In this document: positions 715 to 18,652 of the stretch, piece after piece | Layout: each line of letters starts with the position of its first letter | Position numbering within the stretch: position 1 is the first letter of the stretch | Notes under the pieces: model-generated | Told to the model about the DNA's origin: nothing | Databases searched by the model: none | Seen by the model: only the letters and a program-made list of their open reading frames with translations | Position numbers and translations under genes: made by a program | Assembly (NCBI GenBank): GCA_964579095.1 | Contig: CAZOGA010000003.1 | Location: 1 to 30,588 of the forward strand | Reading direction: 5' to 3' | DNA from: an uncultured Desulfurellales bacterium | Lineage (GTDB): Bacteria > Campylobacterota_A > Desulfurellia > Desulfurellales > Hippeaceae | DNA length: 30,588 nucleotides

Positions 715-733
715 AAAACTAATTTAGAATAAA

Positions 734-919
734 ATGAATAAAGAAGAATTAAAAGAAAATATAGAAAAAATATATAATACTCTTCTAAATGTAGACACTG
801 ATTTAGCTTTTTTAGAGCTTACAGTAATAGAACAAGTAGTCAATTTAAGTGGTAAAGCAAGAAATAATTTAGAAAAAGTGATAAAAGATATTGAGAAACT
901 TAAAAAAATAACTGAATAA
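734..919 (+). CDS. hypothetical helical protein
   Basis: 61-aa ORF flanked by 19-bp direct repeat. Confidence 0.7.
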   Translation: MNKEELKENIEKIYNTLLNVDTDLAFLELTVIEQVVNLSGKARNNLEKVIKDIEKLKKITE

Positions 920-920
920 A

Positions 921-1124
921 ATGAATAAAGAAAGAGAAATGAAAATCCCATTCAAAAAAGAATACATAGAAACATCCGCCGCCAGACTTGATACTAAATT
1001 GATTGGAGTCTTTTCTAAGGACAGCACTGCAGTAATAAATAAAAAACTTAACGCAATTGAAAAAGAATTGAAGAACGCTTGGATTAAAGGTTATAAAAAA
1101 GGGTTAATAGATAAAGCAATATGA
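921..1124 (+). CDS. hypothetical protein
   Basis: 67-aa ORF; ATGA coupling to next gene. Confidence 0.7.
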   Translation: MNKEREMKIPFKKEYIETSAARLDTKLIGVFSKDSTAVINKKLNAIEKELKNAWIKGYKKGLIDKAI

Positions 1125-1378
1125 TTGCCTATACTCCATTGCCTCCTAACTTCGGTGAAGGGCTCAGGGCTACCTACAAGGGCGTGGTGGCTACGATATA
1201 CGAATATCCCACCCACGCACTTATTTATACCATAGAGAGCAAGCACGAGGGCAAGGGACAGGTTAGGAGATTCCTAGAGCTACTTAGAGAGAAATACCCA
1301 GAGATAAGGTCGTCCGTTCCGTTGAGCGAACGCTGGGAGAAAATAACTAAACTAAATAAAATTAAAATAGTGGAATGA
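1121..1378 (+). CDS. GNAT-like acetyltransferase, minimal
   Basis: IYTIESKHEGKGQVRRFLELL resembles the GNAT acetyl-CoA-binding motif A; about 51% GC over 1141-1320 (hand count). Confidence 0.5.
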   Translation: MIAYTPLPPNFGEGLRATYKGVVATIYEYPTHALIYTIESKHEGKGQVRRFLELLREKYPEIRSSVPLSERWEKITKLNKIKIVE

Positions 1379-1665
1379 AAAAAGAGAATAAATTACTTAA
1401 AACTATTCGTCAGAATGATGAGAGGTTTGATGAAAAAATAGAAAATGAATTTTTGTATCTTAAAAAGTCTGATAATAGTTATCATTTGGCGGCGAAAACC
1501 GTAGCAAAAGAAGAAGGAAAGATATATTTCACCCAATCCCGAATAAAAGAGCTGGAAGCGTTGGTAGAAATGATGAAAGAATATCCTATCAAGGATAGTC
1601 AGATAGGAGCATTTTATGACATTATCAGAATTTTAAAAAACACAATCAAAGAATTAAAAAACTAA
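1375..1665 (+). CDS. hypothetical protein
   Basis: 96-aa ORF, ATGA-coupled. Confidence 0.7.
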   Translation: MKKENKLLKTIRQNDERFDEKIENEFLYLKKSDNSYHLAAKTVAKEEGKIYFTQSRIKELEALVEMMKEYPIKDSQIGAFYDIIRILKNTIKELKN

Positions 1666-1668
1666 CTT

Positions 1669-2019
1669 ATGAAAATGACAAAAGAAAATAAATGTATCAG
1701 CTTACCTCTAGCAAAAGAACTCCAACAAGTGGCAGAGGAGAAAGGATTTAGATTGCCAGAGAGTGAACTTGTTTATATCAATGAAACATTAAGATTTCAC
1801 AGACAAGATAATTTATATAATCCTATTCCTGCCTATGATACAGCAGAATTAGGAGAGATATTGAAAGAATATGATTTAGAATGTATCTGGTTTGAAGAGA
1901 AGAATAAATTTGGAGCATTTCAAACTTGTAGTAGCGTTAAACCACAATATGCAGATACGGAAGCCGATGCCCGCGGCAAACTTCTTGTGTTTTTAATTAA
2001 GAATAATTTAATAAAATGA
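1669..2019 (+). CDS. hypothetical phage protein (alternative start 1675)
   Basis: 116-aa ORF; MTKENK junction motif at 1675. Confidence 0.75.
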   Translation: MKMTKENKCISLPLAKELQQVAEEKGFRLPESELVYINETLRFHRQDNLYNPIPAYDTAELGEILKEYDLECIWFEEKNKFGAFQTCSSVKPQYADTEADARGKLLVFLIKNNLIK

Positions 2020-2210
2020 CAAAAGAACAAGAAATTAGAGAAGTAATAAAAAGAGAACGAGATAGAATACAATTAGATTTAGAAGAATATATGCAAGGAA
2101 CTTTTTTAGAACAAGATAGTATTTATGTTGATTTACACGATATTATAAATAATAACAATAATAACTATGAACAAAGAAAAAGATTTGAAAGAAAATTTGG
2201 AAGAGTTTAA
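2016..2210 (+). CDS. hypothetical protein
   Basis: 64-aa ORF, ATGA-coupled; overlaps next ORF by 44 nt. Confidence 0.6.
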   Translation: MTKEQEIREVIKRERDRIQLDLEEYMQGTFLEQDSIYVDLHDIINNNNNNYEQRKRFERKFGRV

Positions 2211-2412
2211 AAAATTAGTGATGAATACTCGGGCTTTTTGGTTGCCTCCCGAAAAAAATGGAGGATGGGGAGAAGTAATGTTTGAGCGAAGAGAAGCCAA
2301 TAAAAAAGGTATTGTTGCAAAGAATCACCAATTTACCCAGACACTATTTTTAGAAAAACTATTAGAAAAATTATATGGGTTCAAATCTCATTCCCGCCCA
2401 ATAAAAATGTAA
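2167..2412 (+). CDS. hypothetical protein
   Basis: 81-aa ORF, MNKEKD start. Confidence 0.65.
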   Translation: MNKEKDLKENLEEFKKLVMNTRAFWLPPEKNGGWGEVMFERREANKKGIVAKNHQFTQTLFLEKLLEKLYGFKSHSRPIKM

Positions 2413-2431
2413 ACAAACTTAAAATAATAAA

Positions 2432-2626
2432 ATGACAAAAGAAAATAAAACAATAAAAGAAATATATAAATGCAAAAATTGTTCAGGTGATTTAAAATAT
2501 ATCAGAGGATTAGGATGGTGTCATATTGTTGCTACAGGTTGTGTTAATCCGCAAGTAAATAAGGAAGATTGGAAATGTTATTTAAAAAATAATAAAACTA
2601 AAATTGCCAAACAATTAAAAAAATAA
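2432..2626 (+). CDS. small Cys-rich, putative zinc-binding protein
   Basis: CKNC ... WCH ... C motifs. Confidence 0.6.
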   Translation: MTKENKTIKEIYKCKNCSGDLKYIRGLGWCHIVATGCVNPQVNKEDWKCYLKNNKTKIAKQLKK

Positions 2627-2700
2627 CTTAATAAAGATGTAAACAAACTCTATTGTTTGTAGACAAGAAGATAAAGATATAAACAAACTTTTAAAATAAA

Positions 2701-3129
2701 ATGACAAAAGAAAATGAAACCATAAAAAAAATACAAGAGTTAGTGCCTTCAATAATGGAGTTGAAATTTGGGTGTAAGGTTGTTGATGAGGAATACGGAA
2801 GAAAACATATTTATTATTTTGGAAGTGAGAATAAAGATTTTGTTTATTTGCATAAAGATAGTAAAGAAAGACAAGAATGGAAAAATAAATTTAAAGATAA
2901 TTTTAAAATACTCGGCAGACCAATTTCTCTGGAAGATATTTTAATTGCCTTAGAGAAAAAAGGAATCCCAATGAGGATTGATACAGAAGGGGAATTTCTT
3001 AAATACAAGAAAACCGATGATGATATAGGTTATAACTGGATAGAAACAGATATTTTCTGGCAACTAAACAAGCCCTTTCACGAGCAGAGCCAAAATACTA
3101 AGGACTTCATTGGAGATTTAATTAAATAG
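2701..3129 (+). CDS. hypothetical phage protein
   Basis: 142-aa ORF with typical codon usage. Confidence 0.8.
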   Translation: MTKENETIKKIQELVPSIMELKFGCKVVDEEYGRKHIYYFGSENKDFVYLHKDSKERQEWKNKFKDNFKILGRPISLEDILIALEKKGIPMRIDTEGEFLKYKKTDDDIGYNWIETDIFWQLNKPFHEQSQNTKDFIGDLIK

Positions 3130-3136
3130 GTAAATT

Positions 3137-3292
3137 ATGAAAAAAGAAAAAATAAAAATACCTAAAACAGCAAAAGAGCTAAGAAATTTAATTATTTGGG
3201 CTAAATCTGAAATAGATGAATATCAGGATTTTATTAAATTATGTGAAAAGCAAATAAAATTATTGAGAGAAAACAAAAAAAATAAACTATGA
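3137..3292 (+). CDS. small hypothetical protein (51 aa)
   Basis: Manually translated MKKEKIKIPK...; ATGA-coupled to next ORF. Confidence 0.6.
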   Translation: MKKEKIKIPKTAKELRNLIIWAKSEIDEYQDFIKLCEKQIKLLRENKKNKL

Positions 3293-3453
3293 AAAAGAAA
3301 ACTTGGGAAGAGATAAAAAAGGAAATACTCCGTAAAGACCACGCTAGGATAATCCGCTGGGCAGAGGAATATATAGAGAGGGATAAAAGAATCTGTGGCA
3401 CGGACAAACACGGAATAGCGCTGGCAGATTTGATTAGAGAGATAAACAAATGA
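3289..3453 (+). CDS. small hypothetical protein (54 aa)
   Basis: Manually translated MKKKTWEEIK...; ATGA coupling at both ends. Confidence 0.6.
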   Translation: MKKKTWEEIKKEILRKDHARIIRWAEEYIERDKRICGTDKHGIALADLIREINK

Positions 3454-3629
3454 AATTACAAAATAAATATATCTTAATAGGAATACTTCTTTTTCCTTTT
3501 ATATTGGGAATGTATATTGGAGAGATATTATCAAGAGTAGGAGAATGGATATATAAAGTGTCGGAGAAATACTTTGATAAATATGGAGAAAAAATTGTTG
3601 AGAAATTAAATTTAGAAGAAAAAGAATGA
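3450..3629 (+). CDS. small membrane protein (59 aa)
   Basis: Manually translated; hydrophobic YILIGILLFPFILGMYIG. Confidence 0.55.
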   Translation: MKLQNKYILIGILLFPFILGMYIGEILSRVGEWIYKVSEKYFDKYGEKIVEKLNLEEKE

Positions 3630-3702
3630 TTGATGATAAGATTGATAATTTCTTTAAGTATCTGATTAAGTTTTATCTATAAGGGGGTTGTGGAAAACTG
3701 AC

Positions 3703-3731
3703 TTGCAATGGTTTTAAAAATATATTAAGAT
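3703..3731 (+). promoter_or_regulatory. putative sigma70-type promoter
   Basis: TTGCAA-17-TAAGAT; ATG3741 lies about 3 nt after the expected +1, the same geometry as the 9019 promoter. Confidence 0.4.
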
Positions 3732-3740
3732 GATAATACA

Positions 3741-3908
3741 ATGAGAAAAGAAAAAATAAAACAATATAGGAATAAAGCAATAAATGATTTTTGGGACGAA
3801 CATAAAGCAGACTGGGAAATGAAAGATGTTGCTTATTTATTTAATTTGAGTTTGCCACAAATTTACAGAATATTAAAAGAGAAAAAACAAAGGTCGGAAA
3901 TAAAATAA
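3741..3908 (+). CDS. small helix-turn-helix DNA-binding protein (55 aa)
   Basis: Manually translated; MKDVAYLFNLSLPQIYRIL fits an HTH pattern. Confidence 0.65.
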   Translation: MRKEKIKQYRNKAINDFWDEHKADWEMKDVAYLFNLSLPQIYRILKEKKQRSEIK

Positions 3909-4113
3909 AATAAACTTATGAAAACTTTAATTCAAGCATTTATATACGAAGAAAAAACACAACAAGATTGCAATCATCCTAGAAAATATCAAAAGATGTT
4001 TAATTATGAAGGAGAATATCCCGCAGGAGGTGTCCGTTGCATGAAATGCGGGAAGATAATTAAACTTGTTGCTACTAATCAAGAATTAAACAAAGGTCGG
4101 AAATAAAATAAAA
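3885..4113 (+). repeat. 26-bp perfect direct repeat (3885-3910, 4088-4113) flanking ORF 3918-4106
   Basis: aaacaaaggtcggaaataaaataaaa twice, 203 bp apart. Confidence 0.9.
3918..4106 (+). CDS. small putative zinc-binding protein
   Basis: CNH ... CMKC motifs. Confidence 0.6.
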   Translation: MKTLIQAFIYEEKTQQDCNHPRKYQKMFNYEGEYPAGGVRCMKCGKIIKLVATNQELNKGRK

Positions 4114-4140
4114 AAAGCAATTAAAAATCTTTAATAAAAA

Positions 4141-4479
4141 ATGAAAAGATTATTAGAAGACCTTCAGAAAAGTAAAATTGTAAAAGTTACAGGAAGTTAT
4201 GCAGATGGCACTCAAAATGATTTTTCAGATATTGATTTTTATGTAAAACCAGACCATCCAGAATGTGAATTTCGTGGAGATAAAAGGAATATAGTAAAGA
4301 TTATAGATATATTAAACAGATATAATATAAAATGGCATTCTCAGGCACCTCTTACAATTTCTACTATAGGGTGTAAAAACAATATTGAAAAAGAACTTGA
4401 ATTTTCAGAACTTTATAAGAAAAGATTGAATAAATTAAAAGAAATAACTATAGAAGGAGTAAATTTCAAAACTTATTAA
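4141..4479 (+). CDS. minimal nucleotidyltransferase (Pol beta superfamily)
   Basis: GSYADG-x5-SDIDFYV matches the GS...DxD signature. Confidence 0.8.
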   Translation: MKRLLEDLQKSKIVKVTGSYADGTQNDFSDIDFYVKPDHPECEFRGDKRNIVKIIDILNRYNIKWHSQAPLTISTIGCKNNIEKELEFSELYKKRLNKLKEITIEGVNFKTY

Positions 4480-4498
4480 AGATTCAAAAAATAAACTT

Positions 4499-4660
4499 AT
4501 GAAAACATTAGAAGAAGTTAATTATATATGTCCTATCTGTGGAAGAGATTTAGCGGAAGACCCAGAAGATTGGATGGAAGAAATGGAGGCTTGTGTTGAA
4601 TGCGTAGCAGAGGGGCGATGTCCCCTCGAAAAGTATAATAAAATAAAAAATAACTTATGA
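4499..4660 (+). CDS. small zinc-finger protein (53 aa)
   Basis: Manually translated; CPIC ... CVEC. Confidence 0.6.
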   Translation: MKTLEEVNYICPICGRDLAEDPEDWMEEMEACVECVAEGRCPLEKYNKIKNNL

Positions 4661-5139
4661 AAAAGAAAATAAATAAAATTACACGCTCAATCAAAAGAAT
4701 ATTCACCGCAGTAATCTTAATAATCACCTTCGCGCTAACAATTTACCTTTATACATCCGAGAACATCGGACAGGCACAGGATGAGGAGATAGGGAGGCTT
4801 AATGCGGTAGTGGCAGAATATAAGACCAATGCAACAGAAGAAAACAAAAGCAACATACAAACTATTATTGATATCTGTGAGGAGGAAGGAGTTGACCCAG
4901 ATTTAGCTTTAAGCGTGTCCGCCTATGAATCACATCTTCAGCAGTATTTTATAGGCATTAACGACAACAAAACAGTAGACAGGGGAATCTTCGCCCTGAA
5001 CAGTTATTATTACGCCAGTGTATCAGATGAATGTGCGTTTTCTGTCCCGTGTGCTACTAGAGTATTTTGTCAGGAAGTGCTAGACGGAAATATAAATAAT
5101 TGGCTTTCAGTTAAAACGCTGGGGCTTGTTAAAAAATAA
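4657..5139 (+). CDS. membrane-anchored lytic transglycosylase-like (SLT) protein
   Basis: N-terminal TM (IFTAVILIITFALTIYLY); GVDPDLALSVSAYES with catalytic Glu; DRGIFALN motif. Confidence 0.7.
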   Translation: MKKKINKITRSIKRIFTAVILIITFALTIYLYTSENIGQAQDEEIGRLNAVVAEYKTNATEENKSNIQTIIDICEEEGVDPDLALSVSAYESHLQQYFIGINDNKTVDRGIFALNSYYYASVSDECAFSVPCATRVFCQEVLDGNINNWLSVKTLGLVKK

Positions 5140-5150
5140 CTTAAAAAAAT

Positions 5151-5291
5151 ATGACATTAAGAGAAGAAATCCAAAAAGCAACACAACAACGCCACAATGA
5201 GAGATTTTGGGATAATGTAATATTAGACACTTGCATTTTCGTCACAGCTATCTTAGCAGTTCTAACAATTTACATTCTGATATATGGATAG
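5151..5291 (+). CDS. small membrane protein (46 aa)
   Basis: Manually translated; C-terminal hydrophobic CIFVTAILAVLTIYILIYG. Confidence 0.55.
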   Translation: MTLREEIQKATQQRHNERFWDNVILDTCIFVTAILAVLTIYILIYG

Positions 5292-5448
5292 AGAAAAAAT
5301 CAAAAAAGTAATAATCCACGAAGTTAAATATTATATTTGGGATTGTCCTAAATGTGGATGTGAGAATAATAATGATATAGAAATATTTAAAAAAGTAGGA
5401 TGCAAATATTGTGGTGAAATATTTGAAGTTGAAGAAATAGAAAAATAA
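5284..5448 (+). CDS. zinc-ribbon protein (54 aa)
   Basis: Manually translated; CPKC ... CKYC. Confidence 0.6.
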   Translation: MDREKIKKVIIHEVKYYIWDCPKCGCENNNDIEIFKKVGCKYCGEIFEVEEIEK

Positions 5449-5457
5449 AAACTTATT

Positions 5458-5568
5458 ATGGAAATTGATATAAAAGAAGAAGCAGAAGAACTAGAGGACG
5501 AATATCAAGCTGAATGCGCTGAACGAGATAAGGACGATGAATACGAAAGGTCGCGCGGAGTCCAATGA
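5458..5568 (+). CDS. highly acidic peptide (36 aa)
   Basis: Manually translated MEIDIKEEAEELEDEYQAECAERDKDDEYERSRGVQ; 16 of 36 residues D/E. Confidence 0.5.
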   Translation: MEIDIKEEAEELEDEYQAECAERDKDDEYERSRGVQ

Positions 5569-5600
5569 AAAAAATAAATAAAATATTAAATAAAAAATAT

Positions 5601-6404
5601 ATGCAGATTCAAAATACAAGAGATTATCAAAATGTTCCTAATATAAATATGCTTATTTATGGCAGGGGCGGAGTAGGAAAATCTACTTTCGGCGCCACTT
5701 TTCCAAAGCCTTTATTTTTAGATTTTGAAAATGGCGTTAAATACTTTAAGCAAAGAGGCATTGAAGTGCCAGTGGTTCAATTTCAAAACTTTCCTACAAA
5801 GAAGGAGCAAGCGGAAATTATCGCTTATGTGTCTAAAGGATTTGATACGGTAATCGTTGATCCGATTGGGGAAGCAATGGAAAGATTGATTAAGGATAGA
5901 GAACTTATCTCTGGTTCTAAAAATAGACAGCAAGACGGATCGCTAACTATGGCAGGTTGGGGAAAGGTCAAAGACGAAATGCGCACTTTCTTAAAAGCTT
6001 TAAGAAATACGGGAAAGAATCTTGTTATTATAGCGCATACAACAGAAATACAAGATAGCGAAGTTTTAAAGGTAAGACCATTACTAGCAACAAAATTGAT
6101 AGATGAGCTTATTGCAATGGTAGATATTGTAGGCTATTTAGATGTAATAAAAGTCAGTAAAGACGAAGAGAAACGAATCATAAGAGTAAATCCTGCAGAC
6201 GAGAGATTTGATGCTAAAGATAGAACTGGAGCGCTACCAGATATTATAAAACCTGATTATAAATGGATTATTGATTGTATTACTAAGAAGCAAGTAAAAC
6301 CATTGAAACAACAAACACTAGAACCGCCAGTAGAAACAGAGAATATTCCTGTTATAGAAGAAGAAGGGAGTTTAGAAAAATATACTAACCCTTTTCCACA
6401 ATAA
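5601..6404 (+). CDS. AAA_24/Sak4-like ATPase (phage recombination); alternative start 5565
   Basis: Walker A LIYGRGGVGKST, FLDFENG, Walker B VIVDP, AKDR motif; next to nuclease and SSB. Confidence 0.8.
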   Translation: MQIQNTRDYQNVPNINMLIYGRGGVGKSTFGATFPKPLFLDFENGVKYFKQRGIEVPVVQFQNFPTKKEQAEIIAYVSKGFDTVIVDPIGEAMERLIKDRELISGSKNRQQDGSLTMAGWGKVKDEMRTFLKALRNTGKNLVIIAHTTEIQDSEVLKVRPLLATKLIDELIAMVDIVGYLDVIKVSKDEEKRIIRVNPADERFDAKDRTGALPDIIKPDYKWIIDCITKKQVKPLKQQTLEPPVETENIPVIEEEGSLEKYTNPFPQ

Positions 6405-6405
6405 T

Positions 6406-7290
6406 ATGACAGAAATAAAAAGAGAAATACATAAATTATATGGGGGGAAAGTTGAGATAGAATTTTTGCCAAAAAATCACGCTTATTACTTGATAAAAGA
6501 CGGTAAGAAATTATCAAAAAAGAAGCGATTGACAGGATCAACAACCTTTACTGGTCAGATAGATAAAAGCGCACCTCTTATTATCTGGGCAACACGGCTC
6601 TACACTGCGAAAGTAAGAGAAATTATGGGAGATTTAACATCTATTTTTACGGCTACTGATGTTCTTTCAATGCTTGCCCTAGGAGAATCCGCGCATAAAG
6701 AGAAAAAAGAACAGGCGGCGAGTATAGGAGATTATGTTCACGAGTTCGCTGAACAATACAGCAAAGATAGAAACGAAAGAAAAGCTTATGACAGAGTTAT
6801 TGAAGAATTGGGAACGCCTACAAGTGATATGGCAAAACAAATCAATGTAGGATGTGTAGGTTTTATTGATTGGCTTAAAAAGGAAAAAGTTAAGATCCTT
6901 AGTGCGGAAAAAATTGTCTATTCTAGGAAGATTGGTTTTGTAGGGACTTATGACGCTATTGTAGAGATTGCTAAAAAAAGATATTTAACTGACTGGAAAA
7001 CTGCAAAAGCTATATATAGCCCATACTGCTATCAATCCGCCTCTTATTTTAAGGCTTACGAAGAAGAACACCCGAAAGAAAAGTTAGACGGAACAATGAT
7101 TGTTAGTATAGCAAAGGAAGATATTTTAGATAAAGAAAAGAATATAATCAGAAAAGCAGGATCTATTGTTTCTCTAATAAGAAGCAGGGTAGATGTTTTA
7201 AAAGATTATGTAGCTTTTAAGGCATTAACAGTTTTAAAAACTAGAGAAAAAGAAGTTAATAAACAGCTAAATAATAGATACTATGTATAA
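6406..7290 (+). CDS. PD-(D/E)XK exonuclease (Cas4/YqaJ-like)
   Basis: E...GTYD...DWKT...YQSASY signature. Confidence 0.8.
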   Translation: MTEIKREIHKLYGGKVEIEFLPKNHAYYLIKDGKKLSKKKRLTGSTTFTGQIDKSAPLIIWATRLYTAKVREIMGDLTSIFTATDVLSMLALGESAHKEKKEQAASIGDYVHEFAEQYSKDRNERKAYDRVIEELGTPTSDMAKQINVGCVGFIDWLKKEKVKILSAEKIVYSRKIGFVGTYDAIVEIAKKRYLTDWKTAKAIYSPYCYQSASYFKAYEEEHPKEKLDGTMIVSIAKEDILDKEKNIIRKAGSIVSLIRSRVDVLKDYVAFKALTVLKTREKEVNKQLNNRYYV

Positions 7291-7576
7291 AAAATTCAAT
7301 CTAGCAAAACCTAAAAAATACACAGATAAACGAACAGGAGAGGAAAAAACTTTTTGGCAAACAATAGGGACAATGACTGAATTTGAAAAAGAGGATGGCA
7401 AGGTATCTCGTATTTTAGAGATTCCTGCAATTGGACTTGAATGTAGTGTATTTCCAGCAGAACCGCGCGAACCGCGCGGAGAACAAAGCGGACAAGGCGG
7501 ATACAGCAAGCCAGCAGTTCATAGTGAGATTGAAGGTGCAGCAGATGAGATAAATGTAAAAGATATACCCTTTTAA
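7283..7576 (+). CDS. SSB-like protein
   Basis: Beta-rich N-terminus, G/Q/S-rich linker, C-terminal DIPF tail; position in module. Confidence 0.6.
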   Translation: MYKKFNLAKPKKYTDKRTGEEKTFWQTIGTMTEFEKEDGKVSRILEIPAIGLECSVFPAEPREPRGEQSGQGGYSKPAVHSEIEGAADEINVKDIPF

Positions 7577-7577
7577 T

Positions 7578-7928
7578 ATGGAAATAGTAACAATAAACAC
7601 AATTACGGAATATCTAAAAAAGCAGGTAGAAGAACATATCCCGATTGCCCCAAGTCTTTGGATAGACTCTGCCCAAAAAATAAATGTTTTGTTAGGAGAT
7701 GAACACGATAAGCTCTTTGAGATTCAGCAGAAAGTTGCTAAAATAAAGGTAGGATATATTGAACAAGACAAAACAGTATCAGAGGCAAAAACAAGAGTAG
7801 AGGCTAGCGAAGAATACAAAGAATACCAGCTTCAAAAGGCAAAGATAGGCAGAATAGAAGAGTTTATCAGGTTAGCAAAAATACAAGCGAGGACTAGAAC
7901 GGAAGAAATGAAAGGATATAATTTATGA
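7578..7928 (+). CDS. coiled-coil protein, possible recombination accessory
   Basis: Helical 116-aa ORF after SSB; function inferred from position only. Confidence 0.45.
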   Translation: MEIVTINTITEYLKKQVEEHIPIAPSLWIDSAQKINVLLGDEHDKLFEIQQKVAKIKVGYIEQDKTVSEAKTRVEASEEYKEYQLQKAKIGRIEEFIRLAKIQARTRTEEMKGYNL

Positions 7929-7930
7929 CC

Positions 7931-8030
7931 GCCCGACTCTGTAAGAAGAACAAAAAAACAAACAGCTTCAAAATGGAGTCGGGCATTAACATTCCACTAC
8001 TCCCTTTGCTTATGCGTGGGAGTGGTGGAA
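7931..8030 (+). other. structured intergenic region with two stem-loops
   Basis: gcccgactc(7931-7939)/gagtcgggc(7976-7984); ttccactactccc(7992-8004)/gggagtggtggaa(8018-8030) with one G-U. Confidence 0.65.
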
Positions 8031-8040
8031 AGAAAATATT

Positions 8041-8271
8041 ATGAAACTAACATACAATATGGCATTACGGGATATTTGCGACTCTCTAGGAGTAGAAACA
8101 GAGATAACAGCTAGGGGCAAAGATGAGGCGTTAGCGCGGACAGTGGAAGCGATTGAGGATAAATACACCGCTGATATAAAGACAATCAGGGACGCTCTTA
8201 AGGGCAAGCAGGTGATGACTAGGAAGGATATTAAGGAATTGATGAGGTATATTGATTCTTATTTATTATGA
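8041..8271 (+). CDS. hypothetical protein
   Basis: 76-aa ORF; about 45% GC over 8041-8220 (hand count). Confidence 0.65.
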   Translation: MKLTYNMALRDICDSLGVETEITARGKDEALARTVEAIEDKYTADIKTIRDALKGKQVMTRKDIKELMRYIDSYLL

Positions 8272-11009: not shown

Positions 11010-11399
11010 ATGGCATCTGAACACGCAAAAGCAGTTGCTCAAGAAGTAATTGAAAAAGCGAGAAAAGGCGAGAAAATCAATAAGCAGGAGATTCAGATGA
11101 AACACGGCTATTCTAAAACTTCTGCTAAATCAATGAAAGCAACAATAACTAAAACTTATAAGAAAACGATGAAGCCAATTATTAAAAGTCTAATAACTGA
11201 AAGAGATAGGGCTATTGAAGAGATGAAAAAGAAAAGAAAAGACGCAAAGTATCGGGACTTATCTGATGCAGTTGATAAATTGACTAAAGTAATTCAATTA
11301 TTATCTGGCCGTGCAACAGATAGAACAGAGATATTTACTCAAGAACAAATTGATGCAATTCTCAATAGAAGAACAAAAAAAGATAGCACAAGCAGGTAG
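11010..11399 (+). CDS. terminase small subunit (putative)
   Basis: Basic helical protein with HGYSKTSA HTH-like motif directly upstream of and overlapping TerL. Confidence 0.65.
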   Translation: MASEHAKAVAQEVIEKARKGEKINKQEIQMKHGYSKTSAKSMKATITKTYKKTMKPIIKSLITERDRAIEEMKKKRKDAKYRDLSDAVDKLTKVIQLLSGRATDRTEIFTQEQIDAILNRRTKKDSTSR

Positions 11400-12777
11400 G
11401 TATGACCTTATTGATTTTTCTATTATTACTAATAGACAATATAAACCTAACTGGCACCATAATCAGATAGCAGAGAAACTAGAAGCAGTGGAAGCAGGCA
11501 AATTAAAGAGGTTAATGATATTTATGCCTCCGCGCGCTGGAAAATCTCAATTAGCGACTATTAACTTTCCTGCGTGGTATTTAGGAAGAAATCCAGATAA
11601 GGAAGTAATAACAGTCAGCTACTCTGGAGAGCTTGCATTAGACTTCGGGAGCAAGACAAGAGATTTAGTGAGGGATGAAGTTTATAATTTAATATTTAAT
11701 TTATCTTTAAGAGAAGACGAAAAAGCAAAAGGAAAATGGAGAACAAAACAAGGAGGATATTATATTAGTATGGGAATAGGCGGAACAATCACAGGCAGGG
11801 GAGCAGATATCCTATTGATTGATGACCCTATTAAAAACAGAGAGGAAGCGGAATCAGAAGTTTACCGCAACAAGGTTTGGGATTTCTACACATCCACAGC
11901 ATATACAAGACTTAATCCGGGCGGAGCAGTTATTATTATCTTGACTCGTTGGCATTTAGACGACTTAGCGGGAAGACTATTAAAGAAAGAGAGGCAAAAT
12001 TGGGAAGTGATAGAATTTCCAGCCATAGCGATAAAGGATGAGAAATACAGAAAGCAAGGTGAACCATTATGGCCGAGTAGATATTCTTTAGAAGAATATG
12101 AAAAAACAAAAGAAACAATAGGAATAATTAACTGGAATGCTTTATATCAACAAAGACCTATTTTATCAGAGAATCAAGAGTTTAAGCCCTACTGGTTCAA
12201 ATATAGGACACAAGAAGAACTTAATATATTAGAAACAAGGAACTTTATAACAATAGATACCGCAATCAGTAAGAAAGCCTCTGCGGACTATACAGGTATT
12301 TGCAGAAATTTTGTAGACAAAGAAAACAAGTGGAACATAAAGACTAATAAGTTAAGGATAAACCCTAAAGAACTAATAGACTTGCTATTTACTCTTTATG
12401 AGAAAGACAGACCAGAGAAGATAGGCATAGAAAAGACAATCTATTTACAGGCAATTAAGCCTTTCTTAGATGATGAAATGCGAAAGAGAAATAAGTTTTT
12501 ACCAATTGTGGAACTACTGCATAATCAAATCCAAAAAGAAACACGAATAAGAGGAATAATACCAAGATATGAAAGTGGTTCAATTATACATATAGAGAAT
12601 GAATGCGGAGATTTAGAAGAAGAAGCCTTGTCATTCCCTTTAGGCGCTCACGATGATGTTTTAGATAGCCTTGCTTATCAAGTTCAAATAGCAGAATCTC
12701 CAATTGGAAACGAAGCAATAAGGCGTAAAATTTTACAAAACCGCGCGCGGAGAACTAAAAACGAACTAATACCTTAA
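11353..12777 (+). CDS. terL: terminase large subunit
   Basis: Walker A MPPRAGKS, TGRGADILLIDDP, TRWHLDDLAGRL, nuclease IDTA...ADYT and HDDVLDSLAY. Confidence 0.95.
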   Translation: MQFSIEEQKKIAQAGRYDLIDFSIITNRQYKPNWHHNQIAEKLEAVEAGKLKRLMIFMPPRAGKSQLATINFPAWYLGRNPDKEVITVSYSGELALDFGSKTRDLVRDEVYNLIFNLSLREDEKAKGKWRTKQGGYYISMGIGGTITGRGADILLIDDPIKNREEAESEVYRNKVWDFYTSTAYTRLNPGGAVIIILTRWHLDDLAGRLLKKERQNWEVIEFPAIAIKDEKYRKQGEPLWPSRYSLEEYEKTKETIGIINWNALYQQRPILSENQEFKPYWFKYRTQEELNILETRNFITIDTAISKKASADYTGICRNFVDKENKWNIKTNKLRINPKELIDLLFTLYEKDRPEKIGIEKTIYLQAIKPFLDDEMRKRNKFLPIVELLHNQIQKETRIRGIIPRYESGSIIHIENECGDLEEEALSFPLGAHDDVLDSLAYQVQIAESPIGNEAIRRKILQNRARRTKNELIP

Positions 12778-13192: not shown

Positions 13193-14923
13193 ATGTCCCA
13201 AATACTTAAACAAATTAGCGACGAATTAAACTCTTATCTTACTCAGGAGGTTTTTATCTCTGAAGGATATCCGTATTCTGAACACGATTTAAAAAAGAGA
13301 ATTGTTATTTATGCTAACGGGATTTTTCCTGAAGGCAAAGTTGATAGCAAAGGGAACTATAAATACTGGTTTGATATTTGCAGTTCGCGCGTAGATGACG
13401 AGATTAAGAATATTGATTTTGACACAAAGCATATTGAAATTTATGTTGACCCGCCAAGTTCAAAATATGATACGCCTCTTTTTATCGCAAACGCACAGCT
13501 GAAAGACTTTTTAAGGGAAACCCGTCAAGCCCAAAAGATTAACGAATCTTTAGAAGAGTTTTCAGGCTGGGGGAATATTCTCTGGAAAAAGATAAAAGGA
13601 AAATACATAAAACTTGATTTGCTTAATACTTATATTATAAACACTGTTGCTAGAAGTATTAACGAAACGCCTGTAATCGAACGCTGGGAGATGACACAGA
13701 GCCAGCTAAGAGAGATGAATGGCGTATGGGACAATATTGAAGAAGTTATCAAGGAATGCGGAGACAAGCAGTTTTTGAGCGCTAAAGATGACGCAAAAAC
13801 TTATGTTCAAGATACAACAATTCCTTATTATGAGATATTTGAACGAAACGGAGAAGTTAGCGAGAAGACTTTATTTGAAGCTATGGGCAAAAAAGGCGGA
13901 AGAGAAAACAAATATCTCCTTGCCAAAATAGTTGTAGCAGGATTAGAGAAAGGAAATACCGCAGATACTAAAGTTCTATATGCCAAAGAAATTTCAAAGA
14001 TGCCATATAAAGAGGCTCACAGGGGACGCTACAATGGGCGCTGGTGGAGAACAGGCATATATGAGCTATTATTTGATGTTCAAACAAGAGTCAATGAAAT
14101 AGGCAATCAGATAGCCAGAGGGCTTGAATGGAGTTCTAAGACATTTTTTAGTACTAGCGATAGTCTATTTGTAGAGAATATCTCAACAGATATGGACAAT
14201 GGCGATGTTCTAAAGGCTAAAGATATCAGACAGATAGAAGTAAGAATGCAAGGATTTGACCAATTGGCCGCCGAATGGAATCGGATGATTGCCTTATCTA
14301 AAGATATCTGTAAATCATACGAGATAATTCAGGGTGAAACATTGCCTTCAGGAACACCATTTAGACTTGGCGCGCTAATGAATACGAACGCTAATAAGTT
14401 TTTTGATTATATCCGGGAAAAGATTGGAATAGTTTACGAAGAGATTTTCACGGATTGGATTCTTCCTGATTTAATTAAGAGCATAAAAACTAAGGATGTA
14501 ATTGAACTTGCGGGAGATTCTGAATTTATGGAGAGATATTATAAATCAATCGCAAACGCTTGGTATATTAAAAACTTGCTTGCTATCGGAGTTCATAGTC
14601 CGCAAATGGCTGAAGTGCTAATTCAAAGCAAGATTAACGAATTGAAGAAAAGACCAAAAGCCTTGATCAAGAATAATAAAGAAATGTTTATCGGATTAAA
14701 GGCAAAAGCAAAAATAGTTATTACAGGGGAAAATGTCAGAATGGCCGAAGACTTGGAAACATTAAGTTCATTTATTCAGCTAGAACAAGACCCAGCGAGG
14801 CGAGAATATTTATTAAATATGGCATACGAGAAAAAAGGATTTGATGTAGGAGCAATGCCTAAAAGCCAGCCAGAAGGAGGAGCTATACCAACTAATGCGC
14901 CCGCAGTGCCACTGCCAACATAA
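13193..14923 (+). CDS. portal protein (P22-like); start revised from 13151
   Basis: About 576 aa after TerL; WWRTGIYELLFDVQTRVNEIGNQ portal-type motif. Confidence 0.85.
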   Translation: MSQILKQISDELNSYLTQEVFISEGYPYSEHDLKKRIVIYANGIFPEGKVDSKGNYKYWFDICSSRVDDEIKNIDFDTKHIEIYVDPPSSKYDTPLFIANAQLKDFLRETRQAQKINESLEEFSGWGNILWKKIKGKYIKLDLLNTYIINTVARSINETPVIERWEMTQSQLREMNGVWDNIEEVIKECGDKQFLSAKDDAKTYVQDTTIPYYEIFERNGEVSEKTLFEAMGKKGGRENKYLLAKIVVAGLEKGNTADTKVLYAKEISKMPYKEAHRGRYNGRWWRTGIYELLFDVQTRVNEIGNQIARGLEWSSKTFFSTSDSLFVENISTDMDNGDVLKAKDIRQIEVRMQGFDQLAAEWNRMIALSKDICKSYEIIQGETLPSGTPFRLGALMNTNANKFFDYIREKIGIVYEEIFTDWILPDLIKSIKTKDVIELAGDSEFMERYYKSIANAWYIKNLLAIGVHSPQMAEVLIQSKINELKKRPKALIKNNKEMFIGLKAKAKIVITGENVRMAEDLETLSSFIQLEQDPARREYLLNMAYEKKGFDVGAMPKSQPEGGAIPTNAPAVPLPT

Positions 14924-14924
14924 T

Positions 14925-15206
14925 ATGGGATTATTCACACATTTACGAAAAGCACAGCATTCCGCTAAAATTAGTTCAATGATGAAAGCGAGGATGACAA
15001 ATTTTGAGAAGCTAAAAAAAAGACTTGCATTGCTTTATGAGGATGCTCAGATAACACCGAACCAAAAGAGCGAGATTGACAGATTGCGGTTAGAGTATTC
15101 CACAAAATCAAGACAAATGCTTGAAGTTTATATGGAAAAAGAAGTTAATGTTTTAGAAGATTTAAAAGGAGAATATCAATATAAAATACAAAATAATGCC
15201 ATATAA
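14925..15206 (+). CDS. hypothetical protein
   Basis: ATG14925 directly after portal stop. Confidence 0.65.
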   Translation: MGLFTHLRKAQHSAKISSMMKARMTNFEKLKKRLALLYEDAQITPNQKSEIDRLRLEYSTKSRQMLEVYMEKEVNVLEDLKGEYQYKIQNNAI

Positions 15207-15339
15207 AATTATTAAAAATAAAGTTTATACAAAATCTACTGGGCGCTGGAAACTAAAACAAACCTGTAAATCAGTAGGCAACGCTAAAAAAGCAATAAGA
15301 CTTTTAAGGGGATTAGAAAATAAAACAATAAAAAAATGA
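15196..15339 (+). CDS. small basic protein (47 aa, MPYKIIK...)
   Basis: Manually translated; fills the gap and is ATGA-coupled. Confidence 0.6.
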   Translation: MPYKIIKNKVYTKSTGRWKLKQTCKSVGNAKKAIRLLRGLENKTIKK

Positions 15340-15563
15340 AACTATTTACTAAATATTTTGATAAGGCAGATAAGAACGAACTTAGACTAAGGCAACAGCA
15401 AATTAACGAGCAAATACTGATAGTTACGGGCTTACAAGAGATGATGAAAGGGTTTGTTACCAGCAAATTCTCCAAATATGGATTAGACAGTTCAAAACAA
15501 TGGTCGGTTAACCCAAGCACAGGACAAATTAAAGAAGTAAAACAAAATGGAAAACAAAATTAA
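15336..15563 (+). CDS. hypothetical protein
   Basis: 75-aa coupled ORF. Confidence 0.65.
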   Translation: MKLFTKYFDKADKNELRLRQQQINEQILIVTGLQEMMKGFVTSKFSKYGLDSSKQWSVNPSTGQIKEVKQNGKQN

Positions 15564-15762
15564 ACAATTATTAGAGCAAGCGATAAGTGAGTTAGGGGAT
15601 ATCCGAAATATCAGAGAGAACTTGTTTCAAGATGAAAAGGCATTACAAGTAACAGCAAGATTACTAGCAATAGATATGTTAGAGAAAATTTTGAAGATTG
15701 CTAAAGGCGAAAAGGTCGTATCAACAAAAGATAAATTATTTTATTTACCAAAAAATGGCTAA
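15547..15762 (+). CDS. hypothetical protein
   Basis: 71-aa overlapping ORF. Confidence 0.65.
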   Translation: MENKIKQLLEQAISELGDIRNIRENLFQDEKALQVTARLLAIDMLEKILKIAKGEKVVSTKDKLFYLPKNG

Positions 15763-15946
15763 AAAAGAAGAAATTAAAAAAGAAGAAGTAAAGGCTATTG
15801 TAAAAGCTACTGACAAAAAAGAAGCAGAAAAGAATAAGAAGAAAGTAGTTCGTATTATAGATGTCAACGGGCAGAAATTGACACTTCCAAGTATGGAAGA
15901 AGCCCAAAACTATGTTAAAGCATACGGAGGAAAGATAGTATTATAA
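15755..15946 (+). CDS. hypothetical Lys/Glu-rich protein (start revised from 15698)
   Basis: MAKKEEIKKEEVK start. Confidence 0.65.
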   Translation: MAKKEEIKKEEVKAIVKATDKKEAEKNKKKVVRIIDVNGQKLTLPSMEEAQNYVKAYGGKIVL

Positions 15947-15951
15947 ATCTA

Positions 15952-15984
15952 TGAGGTAAACGGTAAACCTCGCTAAACACCGTT
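15952..15984 (+). promoter_or_regulatory. H-type RNA pseudoknot upstream of scaffold gene
   Basis: S1 GAGGU(15953-57)/ACCUC(15967-71); S2 AACGGU(15959-64)/ACCGUU(15979-84). Confidence 0.6.
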
Positions 15985-15992
15985 AAAAAATT

Positions 15993-16649
15993 ATGGAAGA
16001 TTCCAAAAAAGACGATAAAATTATCACTTCCGAACCTACCGAGGAAGAAAAACAAGCGGAGGCAAAAGCTTTGGAAGAAGTTAAGGATGACGAAATTCGT
16101 AGCGAAGTAATAGAAAAATACGAATTAGATGAGGAAATTGACGCTGACCTCATTAACAAAATCGTCAAAAACACCTTAGGAGAAAAGAAAGCGTTGAGCA
16201 CCGCTATTCGTCAGAAGATAAATCAGCGGACTGAAAACCAAGACCTTCGTAAGAAATACGAGGGGGACGAGAAGAACAAGATTGACGAGAACAAAAAGGT
16301 AGAAAAGATAAATCAGGATGATTTAAACACTATCCTTGATGAGCGCGACAGGAAGCGCGACCTTGATGCTCTTGATGTTTCAGACGAGCTGAAGCAAGAA
16401 ATTGAGTTCTACGCTAAGACTAAAAAGCTATCTGTCAAAAAAGCCCTTGAATCTAGCTATATCAGCTTTCTAAAAGCGAAAGAAGATAAAGCTAAGGAAG
16501 AGGAAGAGGCAGGCGCTGGAAGTGGAAGCGGAACCCATAATATCAAAAACCTTGACAAGATTGAAAGTCCTCGTAAAGCTTTTGACCTTTCTACAGAGGA
16601 AGGACGGAAACAATACGCGGAATGGAAAAAAGCCAAAAAGATGGCATAG
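15993..16649 (+). CDS. capsid scaffolding protein (putative)
   Basis: Acidic, helical 218 aa between portal cluster and MCP. Confidence 0.7.
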   Translation: MEDSKKDDKIITSEPTEEEKQAEAKALEEVKDDEIRSEVIEKYELDEEIDADLINKIVKNTLGEKKALSTAIRQKINQRTENQDLRKKYEGDEKNKIDENKKVEKINQDDLNTILDERDRKRDLDALDVSDELKQEIEFYAKTKKLSVKKALESSYISFLKAKEDKAKEEEEAGAGSGSGTHNIKNLDKIESPRKAFDLSTEEGRKQYAEWKKAKKMA

Positions 16650-16700
16650 AGTCGGTTGAGGGTTGGGGTGTTATGGAATTATAATCTAATTTTTAATTAA

Positions 16701-17915
16701 ATGAGTAATGCATTAACAGCCCTTAATAGAGAGTATTGGCTGTCCGAAGCGCAAATCATTTTCTTTAGGGAAAGTGCCGCGCTAAAGGTAGCCGCCTTAG
16801 AGTTGAGAGATACTCTGAAAAATGGTGATACCATAAATCACCCTGACATCTCTCATCCTCAAGCTGTAACATATACGAAAGGAAGCGCTATCACTAATAA
16901 GGATAGATTCAGCGCGAATCAGCAATTATCAGTAGCCACTGCAAAGGTAGTTCCTTTTTATGTTGACGAAATTGACAGGATTCAGAATGATTTTGTTACA
17001 CAACAGAGAATGGCGCAAGATGGACAAAGACAATTAAACAACACCCTTGACCAATTTGTAAACTATCTTGGCGTTAATAACGCAACAAGTTATGTTGACG
17101 CAGGGGATGTTGGCGGAAGTTCAGGAAGCAATATAGCGTTGACTGTTTCAAACATTGACCAAGTAGCAACTGCTTTTGACACCAAGCTTAATACGCTAGA
17201 TGTTCCTCAAGGCAACAGATTCATAATGTTTGGGCCGAGGTCTAAGGCAGTTTTGAATAGATATCTTGGCGGAAAAGAGACTTCAATGGGTGATATTATT
17301 GGACAGAATGGCAGAATGCCTAACAGATTCGGATTTGAACCGTTCTATTCCAATAACAATTACTACACAGCCACTTGGACACCAGCTGATAATCCTACAG
17401 CAGGCGACACTGTAACGATTAACGGCGCTGTGTATGAGTTTGTAGCCGTGCCTGACACAGACGAGGCTTCAACTGCTTATATTGGAGTAGATATTGGCGG
17501 AAGCACTGCTGTAACGCTTGATAACCTTGTCGCCGCTATAAACGATAGCGGAACAGAGGGGACTACTTACGGCACAACTGACGCTAATAACTGGAGAGCG
17601 CGCTGGAAGACAGTTAAAGCAGGCGTTGTTGCTACTGACGGGACTTCTTATATCTCAATAAAAGGTTATGGAGATATTGTTGTTTCTGCCTCTGAGTCAG
17701 CTGATGTTTGGTCTTCTCAGACTTCTTATGTTTTAGCTGGATTAAGAAAATCAGTTAGCTTAGTAACGCAGGTTTCTCCTGATATTTCTGTCAGACCAGT
17801 AGACAATAAACTAGGAAATAATATCTTTGTATGGACTCTTTACGGAGGGACTGTATTTAACGATATGAAGGACGCCTTAGTTTTCGCCAAAATCGACGCA
17901 AGTGATTGGAATTGA
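16701..17915 (+). CDS. major capsid protein (P22-coat-like, HK97 fold)
   Basis: GDTINHP, GFEPFYSNN and WTLYGGTV motifs; position after scaffold. Confidence 0.88.
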   Translation: MSNALTALNREYWLSEAQIIFFRESAALKVAALELRDTLKNGDTINHPDISHPQAVTYTKGSAITNKDRFSANQQLSVATAKVVPFYVDEIDRIQNDFVTQQRMAQDGQRQLNNTLDQFVNYLGVNNATSYVDAGDVGGSSGSNIALTVSNIDQVATAFDTKLNTLDVPQGNRFIMFGPRSKAVLNRYLGGKETSMGDIIGQNGRMPNRFGFEPFYSNNNYYTATWTPADNPTAGDTVTINGAVYEFVAVPDTDEASTAYIGVDIGGSTAVTLDNLVAAINDSGTEGTTYGTTDANNWRARWKTVKAGVVATDGTSYISIKGYGDIVVSASESADVWSSQTSYVLAGLRKSVSLVTQVSPDISVRPVDNKLGNNIFVWTLYGGTVFNDMKDALVFAKIDASDWN

Positions 17916-18652
17916 TAGATAACTAATACTCTTACGCCCCCGACACAATGACTGAAGAACATAAACAAAAAATAAAACAGAAATTAAAAGGGAGACATCT
18001 TTCTACAATAACTGAATTTAAGAAGGGACATAAATTCTCGCCTGAAATTTTGGAAAAGATAAAGCAAGCTCTTAAGGGAAACATTCCTTGGAATAAAGGA
18101 TTAACTGGAGTTATGCCTATTCCGTGGAATAAAGGAAAAAAAGAAATTCGTCCTGATGTTATTAAGAAAATGAGTGAAGCAAGAAGAAACAAAACCCTTT
18201 CTGAAGAAACGAAGAAAAAAATTAGTCAATCTAATAGAGGAAAAAAGAAAAAATACAAAATTAGCAAAGAACAATTAAGTAAAATTAGAAAAGAACAATA
18301 CCGAAAGCAAATTTTAAATGGAAAGCATCCGAGGTGGAAAGGAGGAATAACGCCATTAGTAGAACAAATAAGACATTGTTTCAAATATCGTCAATGGCGT
18401 TCAGATGTATTTACAAGAGATGATTTTACTTGCCAAAATTGTGGAATAAGAGGAAGCATATTAAACGCTCATCATATTAAAGAATTTAATAAGATAATTG
18501 AAGAAAATAATATCAAAACATTTCAAGAAGCGTTGGATTGTGATGAATTATGGAATATCAATAATGGCGAAACTCTTTGCAAAGAATGTCATAAGAAAAG
18601 ACACTTGGTCATTGTGTCGGGGGACATAAGAGTGATTGGAATTAATAGATAA
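17901..18652 (+). mobile_element. HNH cassette bounded by 22-bp direct repeats and long inverted repeats
   Basis: DR agtgattggaatt(g/a)atagataa at 17901-17922 and 18631-18652; IR 17937-17952/18608-18623 (16 bp perfect), extendable to 17923/18639. Confidence 0.8.
17948..18652 (+). CDS. HNH homing endonuclease with NUMOD3-like repeats
   Basis: SEETKKKISQS and IPWNKG repeats; FTCQNCG...AHHIK...NGETLCKECH. Confidence 0.88.
   Translation: MTEEHKQKIKQKLKGRHLSTITEFKKGHKFSPEILEKIKQALKGNIPWNKGLTGVMPIPWNKGKKEIRPDVIKKMSEARRNKTLSEETKKKISQSNRGKKKKYKISKEQLSKIRKEQYRKQILNGKHPRWKGGITPLVEQIRHCFKYRQWRSDVFTRDDFTCQNCGIRGSILNAHHIKEFNKIIEENNIKTFQEALDCDELWNINNGETLCKECHKKRHLVIVSGDIRVIGINR

Follow-up and report, generated by a model that had tools for sequence, protein, structure and literature searches.

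Short direct repeats at gene termini of an AT-rich phage genome: a homing-endonuclease insertion and repeats of mixed origins

By what means phages acquire and lose single genes without an integrase is a long-standing question, for which illegitimate recombination and short conserved boundary sequences have been set against each other as answers. The question is raised by the window, the first 30,588 bases of contig CAZOGA010000003.1, which is most of a lytic-type AT-rich phage genome and carries five pairs of direct repeats on the starts or stops of its genes. The sequence-only reading of this DNA took the pairs as the ends of single-gene cassettes, each repeat copying a host-gene terminus, and proposed one integrase-free mode of capture, possibly driven by the phage's own Sak4-like annealing module, or else a staggered cut. 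The observation stood, as the repeats are real and linked to gene boundaries, while a single shared capture logic held only in part. One pair flanks an HNH endonuclease gene inserted behind the major capsid gene; taken together, the repeats are of mixed origins and no new gene-capture machine is demonstrated.

All five pairs were found at their claimed positions, with the lengths and mismatches claimed for them, and the starts and stops said to lie inside the repeats were also correct. The pairs are:

Case 1: 727-745/914-932, 19 of 19 identical
Case 2: 3885-3910/4088-4113, 26 of 26 identical
Case 3: 3907-3929/4488-4510, 22 of 23 identical
Case 4: 10173-10195/10392-10414, 23 of 23 identical
Case 5: 17901-17922/18631-18652, 21 of 22 identical

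Exact direct repeats of at least 18 nucleotides (nt) numbered 15 in the window. Dinucleotide shuffling, applied globally or within blocks of 300 nt, gave 0.095, and codon-preserving shuffling gave 0.18. The two copies were less than 1 kb apart in 12 repeats, compared to 0.01-0.06 in the shuffles. Five pairs had at least 19 nt in common across an ATG, compared to 0.034 expected from a position-weight model of early gene starts, which served as the third null. A start or stop codon was present in both copies of 9 of 16 pairs; of random 20-mers, 5.3% contain one. Thus, the repeats are non-random and placed on gene termini beyond what any of the three nulls yields, and the exact-repeat scan that had been suggested as a check (15 against 0.1-0.2, codon-preserving shuffles included) left the claim of a real excess intact. 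The unrelated AT-rich phage L042 carried few such repeats in 20 kb, which argues that the repeat density in the early region of the window is not a simple effect of composition. Missing from the earlier list were an MTKE start family (1672, 2009, 2425 and 2695), an 18-nt stop pair at 705/1648 and a pair at 20380/20515.

The cargo genes were unrelated to one another and to their neighbors, as had been claimed, with no paralogy detected; the alternative that they are diverged paralogues of their neighbors was dropped, as no similarity was found. Neither an integrase nor a transposase was present among the window proteins scanned (Pfam, PHROG and NCBIfam), again as claimed. No common motif was found at the cassette ends across the five cases. 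Sigma-70-like promoters numbered 50 (47.8 expected) in a scan that did not cover Bacteroidota-type promoters, and terminators numbered 6 (4.8 expected); none of either was located at a repeat.

The HNH gene behind the capsid gene

Case 5 is decided by the relative L001, a metagenome contig from ENA that is 87% identical in nucleotide sequence to the window across 14393-23779. The features at this junction are:

16701-17915, + strand: major capsid protein gene, the resident target of case 5 (PHROG 267; 202 homologues)
17901-17922, + strand: left copy of case 5, the working capsid 3' end (final four codons, TGA and 7 nt), homologous to the single copy in L001
17923-17952, + strand: left arm of the closing helix, which holds the HNH start codon
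17948-18652, + strand: free-standing HNH homing-endonuclease gene, the inserted cargo (234 amino acids (aa), NUMOD3 and HNH)
18608-18639, + strand: right arm of the closing helix, coding for the C-terminal tail of the HNH protein (not conserved) and extending into the right repeat copy
18631-18652, + strand: right copy of case 5, which retains the ancestral-type TAA as in L001 and, in another frame, encodes the final seven HNH codons and stop
18655-18691, + strand: hairpin behind the capsid gene, which in L001 directly follows the capsid stop

L001 aligned up to 17883 and then from 18637 onward, and between these points it carries the repeat region once. At the capsid end the window has two repeat copies and 708 bases where L001 has one copy, and the cassette now separates the capsid gene from its hairpin. 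The HNH gene was also absent from five more distant relatives (L002, L003, L038, L039 and L040; capsid identity 57-75%), in which the capsid stop is followed by a short hairpin-bearing spacer and then by the homologue of gene 18699. Because six collinear relatives are without it, sequence comparison proves the HNH gene to be a derived insertion and the 22 bp to be a target duplication. A comparison of relatives for presence or absence of cassettes, with breakpoints at the repeats, had been named as a test of the sequence-only reading, and for this cassette the indel did end at the repeat. The capsid C-terminus (DASDWN) agrees with that of the relatives.

The product of the inserted gene matched PF01844 (HNH; E = 6.8e-5), NUMOD3 (PF07460; E = 1.6e-5) and PHROG HNH families down to 6e-11. 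The sole nucleotide match of the window among 50,697 phage records was an 86-nt stretch in the HNH gene of a Leeuwenhoekiella (Flavobacteriaceae) phage. In homologous HNH proteins the chain stops 7-10 residues past the CxxCH motif; the 15-residue tail of the window protein thus comes from reading on into the arm of the helix and into the duplicated target. An HNH domain with a DNA-binding module, presence or absence at a fixed site beside a conserved gene, and no embedding in an intron or intein were all found, and at the level of sequence these are the features of a free-standing homing endonuclease gene. A degenerate group I intron was considered and rejected, as the ribozyme signal was missing and the open reading frame (ORF) is placed after the capsid stop. 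Consistent with this, no Rfam family matched 17700-18800 at the gathering threshold or at E <= 1, barring a spurious miRNA match.

A group I intron with its ribozyme core was present in L002 (~70% nucleotide identity), where it splits the major capsid gene (L002:6764-7701) and carries a 213-aa HNH ORF. The match to RF00028 was 44 bits (E = 1.4e-9), under the gathering score of 50. With this second HNH element, homing elements have targeted the capsid gene of the phage group more than once.

The start region of the HNH gene pairs with the 3' end of its own ORF through a 16-nt perfect and a 14-nt 86% inverted repeat, forming a closing helix of about 31 bp. The helix was present in both the minimum-free-energy and the centroid folds (z = -5.1), and the start-end duplex was predicted at -45.5 kcal/mol, compared to a mean of -8.6 over all 59 genes. 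No other cassette had inverted repeats around its ORF. Judging from the predicted fold, the helix would silence or insulate the endonuclease gene on transcripts that read through from the capsid gene; it could equally be a templated product of the junction. It is not a trait of the endonuclease family, since it was missing from five homologous loci, from the Leeuwenhoekiella phage gene and from the L002 intron ORF.

Hairpins that hide start codons are known from endonuclease genes of T4 and Aeh1, and the predicted RNA structure of the window HNH gene hides its start codon as well. In other respects too the gene resembles the free-standing HNH genes of phages (T4 mob/seg, I-HmuI-like, Cluster J mycobacteriophages): an ORF with HNH and NUMOD3 adjoins a conserved gene, it is found in one phage and precisely missing from close relatives, and a relative carries another HNH gene within its capsid intron. 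Unlike these genes, however, the window gene is closed over its whole length by a long-range helix, and its ORF continues into the duplicated target for its stop. Moreover, 22 bp of the target were duplicated here, and a duplication is not normally left behind when homing proceeds by double-strand-break repair.

The other four repeat pairs

For the early region and for 9900-10800, no relatives were found in INPHARED (megablast, blastn and tblastn), in IMG/VR (five protein queries) or in GTDB genomes. Matches to the large terminase in JGI metagenomes had nothing but the terminase in common with the window, and the contexts of Sak4 homologues had only the Sak4/exonuclease module in common with it.

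Case 4 comes closest to the insertion logic of the sequence-only reading. Its parts are:

10173-10195, + strand: copy a, exactly ATG to TGA of gene 9941-10195
10192-10389, + strand: cargo, a 65-aa hydrophobic ORF with two transmembrane segments judged by eye
10392-10414, + strand: copy b, the current start (MTKKQQN) of gene 10392-10748

Removing one copy and the spacer would restore two genes with a 23-nt overlap, and overlaps of 11-44 nt are frequent in this genome. Copy a has the start-motif context GAAAATGACAAAA, which recurs at 170 and 1670. Such a context is to be expected of an original start, and copy a was probably that of the gene whose start is now at 10392. We infer an insertion between overlapping genes that duplicated exactly the ATG...TGA overlap. 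The insertion logic is internally consistent here, and to that extent upheld, although no relative spans the region. The 65-aa ORF had no homologues in the searches made.

Case 2 departs from this logic. The features around it are:

3885-3910, + strand: copy a, the final seven codons and stop of gene 3741-3908
3918-4106, + strand: zinc-ribbon-like ORF (62 aa), with a 60-aa full-length homologue at 54-58% identity
4088-4113, + strand: copy b, the native 3' end (LNKGRK*) of ORF 3918-4106
4141-4479, + strand: minimal nucleotidyltransferase (112 aa; PF01909, E = 6e-6; weak MntA-like match)

An exhaustive profile-free search aligned the homologue, P0231, over residues 2-61. Its C-terminus (...ATKRELKGRS) corresponds to that of the window ORF (...ATNQELNKGRK), which makes copy b native to the supposed cargo and copy a, at the end of the upstream gene and read in another frame, the derived copy, as we infer from the alignment. 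The claim that each repeat copies a host-gene terminus fails in this case, where the upstream gene's end is the duplicate. Case 2 is most simply read as the copying of a 26-nt patch from one A-rich gene end to another some 200 nt away, and not as a duplication of the resident gene's terminus.

Two minor observations belong to this region. A 21-nt inverted repeat with 81% complementarity (4126-4146 and 4464-4484) spans the start and stop of the nucleotidyltransferase gene; it was set aside because its duplex (-13.6 kcal/mol) is no outlier among window genes. The motif AAAGGTCG occurs five times on the + strand (0.4 expected), at 1-8, 3889-3896, 4092-4099, 5546-5553 and 15711-15718, the second and third copies being inside the case 2 repeat. 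A longer form, AAAGGTCGCGC, opens the contig and recurs 19 nt ahead of the Sak4 ATG. The two may represent a regulatory or end-related motif.

Cases 1 and 3 are not unique target duplications. Both proved to belong to families of sequences at gene starts:

727-745, + strand: case 1 copy a, start of ORF 734-919; ATAAAATGA[AC][AT]AAAGAA family
914-932, + strand: case 1 copy b, stop of ORF 734-919 and start of gene 921-1124; ATAAAATGA[AC][AT]AAAGAA family
2009-2027, + strand: start family member, gene 2016-2210
2425-2449, 2695-2715 and 1672-1692: further start family members
3907-3929, + strand: case 3 copy a, start region of ORF 3918-4106; CTTATGAAAA family
4488-4510, + strand: case 3 copy b, start region of the zinc-ribbon gene 4499-4660, its coding part as in the unrelated phage L042

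The motif ATAAAATGA[AC][AT]AAAGAA was present in five copies (729, 916, 2011, 2427 and 2696; 0.00 expected) and CTTATGAAAA in four (1666, 3915, 4496 and 4654; 0.39 expected). All copies of both are on the + strand at gene starts, and the families span about -11 to +12 around the ATG. The zinc-ribbon gene 4499-4660 had 80% nucleotide identity to L042 with homology from ATGAAAACATTAG, and since the coding part of copy b is the same in this unrelated phage, it is native to the gene. P0231 begins with MLKELI where ORF 3918-4106 begins with MKTLI. On these two comparisons, both case 3 genes plausibly own their MKTL start natively. The start-family repeats are not unique insertion scars; they may be selected initiation regions, conversion products or recombination sites.

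The first of these possibilities can be taken further, to the view that the start-type repeats (cases 1 and 3 and the MTKE family) are selected functional elements, either extended initiation regions or binding sites of a phage factor, and neither scars nor substrates of gene insertion. The families of five and four, in fixed position around the ATG and on one strand, fit this view, as do a genome with A-rich upstream regions and no Shine-Dalgarno sequences and the two case 3 genes that seem to own their starts. There is also a precedent in the start-associated sequences (SAS/ESAS) of Cluster K mycobacteriophages, which are 13-bp, GC-rich, cluster-wide sequences upstream of the start codon that include the ribosome-binding site (Pope et al. 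2011, PMC3203893). Like SAS, the window families are asymmetric motifs at the starts of some unrelated genes in one orientation, a property found in cases 1 and 3 only; unlike SAS, they are A-rich, reach four codons into the ORFs and are known from this one genome. Functional start elements would, however, leave cases 2, 4 and 5 unexplained, as these are unique sequences with stop codons and 3' coding sequence. They would not explain the pair at 705/1648, which is read in two frames, and the identity of the start families extends into synonymous positions beyond what the position-weight model of starts allows. We therefore regard selected function as an unlikely account, albeit the one that holds up best among the rivals considered here.

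The pair just mentioned, AAAGAATTAAAAAACTAA, is an 18-nt exact repeat at two gene 3' ends (705-722 and 1648-1665) that is read in different frames, each gene stopping at a different one of its two TAA triplets. Genes 2432-2626 and 2701-3129, which follow two of the family starts, may in addition be weak paralogues.

Origins of the repeats

Evidence that short repeats of this size interact came from the pair at 20380/20515. Its copies (22 nt) are inside a 64-aa repeat protein (20370-20564) just 5' of a large tail gene, with TKETKHSS at both ends and KFG repeats in the middle. The protein was also found in L001 (5377-5571), L002 (9761-9958) and L003 (12001-12357), and in L003 a whole 54-aa unit is doubled. 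As an internal repeat of a protein kept in four phages, the pair was rejected as a sixth cassette. The two copies are identical within each genome (22 nt in the window, 25 nt in L001 and 19 nt in both L002 and L003), and between genomes both copies differ at the same positions, synonymous sites included. Changes that are shared within a genome and differ between genomes imply that short nearby repeats are homogenized in this lineage (concerted evolution).

Other differences between the window and L001 were of another kind. A 47-aa, very basic ORF (15196-15339) was precisely missing from L001, and its joints were A-rich microhomology with no 20-bp repeat. Conversely, L001 has an insert of about 550 bp (L001:8183-8760) with ORFs of 107 and 80 aa and no flanking repeat, located between the homologues of 22326-22526 and 22561-23322. 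Repeat-bounded insertion did not, therefore, prove to be the general mode of gene gain and loss. At 22527-22560 the window keeps a remnant of about 30 nt that resembles the 3' end of the insert, suggesting a deletion in the window's lineage.

Single genes can also be exchanged between phages that have little else in common. The zinc-ribbon unit (window 4499-4614, L042:10009-10125) is homologous from the ATG, and the homology ends ahead of the C-terminus. L042 has 29% G+C, an Erf-family recombinase and an SU10-type capsid and is otherwise unrelated to the window phage. Judged by this alignment, the zinc-ribbon gene is a single-gene mosaic unit, and it shows that unrelated phages exchange single genes with the joints at ORF boundaries. 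Relaxed-fidelity phage recombinases, such as lambda Red acting on diverged or short homologies, are known to produce mosaic joints (Martinsohn et al. 2008, PMC2327257). The window resembles these models in its integrase-free single-gene exchange at ORF boundaries, in its annealase/exonuclease pair and in the zinc-ribbon gene. The models explain replacement joints; the flanking duplications of the window need offset joints or patch conversion besides.

The unrelated phage L005, in which a Sak4-like gene is also present, has a single 163-aa gene between exact direct repeats of 47 nt (14371-14417/14914-14960) and a further 55-nt pair at 8572/8727. Genes bracketed by repeats are thus not unique to the window.

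The reading that we lean towards is that the repeats reflect integrase-free short-homology or illegitimate recombination together with patch-like conversion at gene junctions, filtered by selection, plus a homing endonuclease. The genes that could take part are:

5565-6404, + strand: Sak4-like annealing protein (PHROG 124, 1.2e-45; PF13479)
6406-7290, + strand: PD-(D/E)XK-type exonuclease (PHROG 298, 3e-20)
8268-8621: RusA resolvase (PF05866)

Joints would form at nearby gene junctions of replicating phage genomes, by recombination that is illegitimate or uses short homologies and by template switching, and selection would retain only those products that leave both flanking genes intact. Under such selection, the duplication of overlaps, starts or stops would be forced. 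Three kinds of product are mixed together on this reading. An insertion may duplicate the terminus of its target, as it did with the HNH gene and probably with the 65-aa membrane ORF; the former landed between the capsid stop codon and the hairpin, with 22 bp duplicated. A patch may be copied, as when 26 bp from the native 3' end of ORF 3918-4106 would have been placed on the end of the upstream gene. Finally, the near-identical start regions common to four or five early genes may owe their likeness to conversion, to selection for initiation without Shine-Dalgarno pairing, or to both. The range of 19-26 nt would then reflect survivorship, as shorter repeats would go unnoticed and longer ones may be quickly deleted by the Sak4-like annealase and exonuclease. 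Repeats of this kind, once in place, could let the enclosed gene be lost and regained precisely. The Sak4-like/exonuclease module is a plausible candidate for the recombination machinery; a single-stranded-DNA-binding protein, which the sequence-only reading had included in the module, was looked for in it and was not confirmed.

Several points weigh against this account. An empty site could be compared in only one of the five cases, as neither the early region nor 9900-10800 had a relative in IMG/VR, JGI metagenomes, GTDB or INPHARED. Two further indels that separate the window from L001 had A-rich microhomology only or no repeat. The direction of copying in case 2 depends on the single homologue P0231, and an ancient chimera under conversion would look alike. 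The example of concerted evolution is part of a repeat protein and may owe something to selection on the peptide, and the link between the repeats and the Sak4 module is circumstantial.

A more specific proposal makes the repeats portable. In its milder form, which we consider improbable, cassettes would be exchanged without an integrase through terminus repeats of about 20 bp that serve as portable sites and are kept alike by conversion, the HNH gene, with its 22-bp target duplication and its 31-bp closing helix, being a homing element of a new type whose insertion proceeds by offset joints and not by clean repair of a break. Just as improbable is the corollary that about 20 bp approximates the minimal length used by the annealase and that the Sak4-like annealase, exonuclease and RusA move the cassettes. 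In its stronger form, a dedicated system would excise circles and reinsert them with these three enzymes, in the manner of PeSL mini-circles or integron cassettes, and this we judge to be slightly less probable again. Single small genes bracketed by repeats, the recombination genes that the phage encodes, the 22-nt pair in concerted evolution and one cassette that is polymorphic exactly at its own repeats all favor such a system, and PeSL-mediated shuffling with mini-circles in T4-type phages is a precedent (PMC2839356). Yet each pair is a different sequence, which leaves no common site; other indels are without repeats; and L042, with its Erf-family recombinase, and several phages with Sak4-like genes carry few such repeats.

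The comparison with PeSL cassettes (Arbiol et al. 2010; Comeau et al. 2014) is instructive in both directions. In T4-type phages, PeSLs form one conserved family that combines a sigma-70 promoter with a terminator stem-loop (PMC2839356; PMC4122927), and the enclosed gene is proposed to leave as a circle. As in the window, short boundary repeats occur in a hyperplastic region of orphan genes. Closely related T4-type phages differ by indels with breakpoints at the repeats; in the window this is true of the HNH cassette and not of the two other indels. The window repeats, in contrast, are coding termini or start regions that differ per pair or family and have neither a promoter nor a terminator signal, and a repeat unit with promoter and terminator was found at none of them. 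Transposons and integrons are excluded by the features tested. The duplications are not of fixed length (19, 26, 23, 23 and 22 nt), terminal inverted repeats surround the HNH ORF only, and five different repeats take the place of a common site for an integrase.

The staggered cut that the sequence-only reading had offered as its second mechanism fared worse. Here, a nuclease such as the HNH enzyme would nick about 20 nt apart, and fill-in would leave duplications of about 22 bp. The HNH cassette has the classic arrangement of direct repeats outside inverted repeats, and enzymes of this HNH class are often nickases. Nevertheless, the repeats vary in length, the cassettes have no common ends, inverted repeats are present on one cassette only and four cassettes contain no nuclease gene. 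In case 2 the duplicate is native to the cargo and not to the target, and homologous HNH genes in five other phages have neither the helix nor flanking repeats. Transposition-like insertion is thus disfavored and, in our view, very improbable.

That the repeats are chimeric short k-mer joins of metagenome assembly, or low-complexity coincidences, is hardly credible: their lengths are close to the usual small k values and the case 1 and case 3 sequences are A-rich, but case 1 is just 19 nt, the internal mismatch in case 5 makes a k-mer join impossible there, every junction keeps its reading frames, the excess over shuffles is large, and three assemblies (NCBI, ENA and Logan) agree on the ORFs, those of the cassettes being present also in Logan and an independent ENA re-assembly of the same sample (35,304 nt) being identical to the window over 1-10159 except for one single-nucleotide polymorphism.

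The genome is a compact natural test bed for integrase-free gene gain and loss, as it holds an insertion with an empty site and a 22-bp duplication, a probable insertion that duplicates an overlap, a patch copy and the homogenization of 20-nt repeats. Should the events depend on the annealase, repeat size would be a readout of the shortest homology used by the enzyme in nature. Starts and stops borrowed from repeats can also mislead annotation as to which gene is resident and which is cargo.

Gene content and minor observations

The window has 35% G+C, with an A content of 39% on the + strand, which carries all of the credible genes. Shine-Dalgarno sequences were not visible upstream of the window genes, which have A-rich upstream regions instead, as in Bacteroidota. 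About 22 tiny orphan genes occupy 1-5500. Further genes used as landmarks are:

11311-12777: large terminase
18699 onward: tail genes

An 18-nt exact G+C-rich repeat (11778-11795/21270-21287) is shared by the genes of the large terminase and a tail protein. It was not considered meaningful, as both copies encode GGTITG in frame and probably represent a coincidence of peptide and codon usage. A Logan-derived protein, P0214, corresponds to gene 2701-3129 with its TAG stop (3127-3129) read as Gln and 12 residues added. As a true variant form of the gene it was rejected, being merely read-through of the stop; either it is a variant, or the gene was called under a TAG-recoding table. Finally, a 51-nt periodic repeat in five to six copies (60-77% identity) was present at 26430-26837, within an 830-aa tail-spike or tail-fiber gene.

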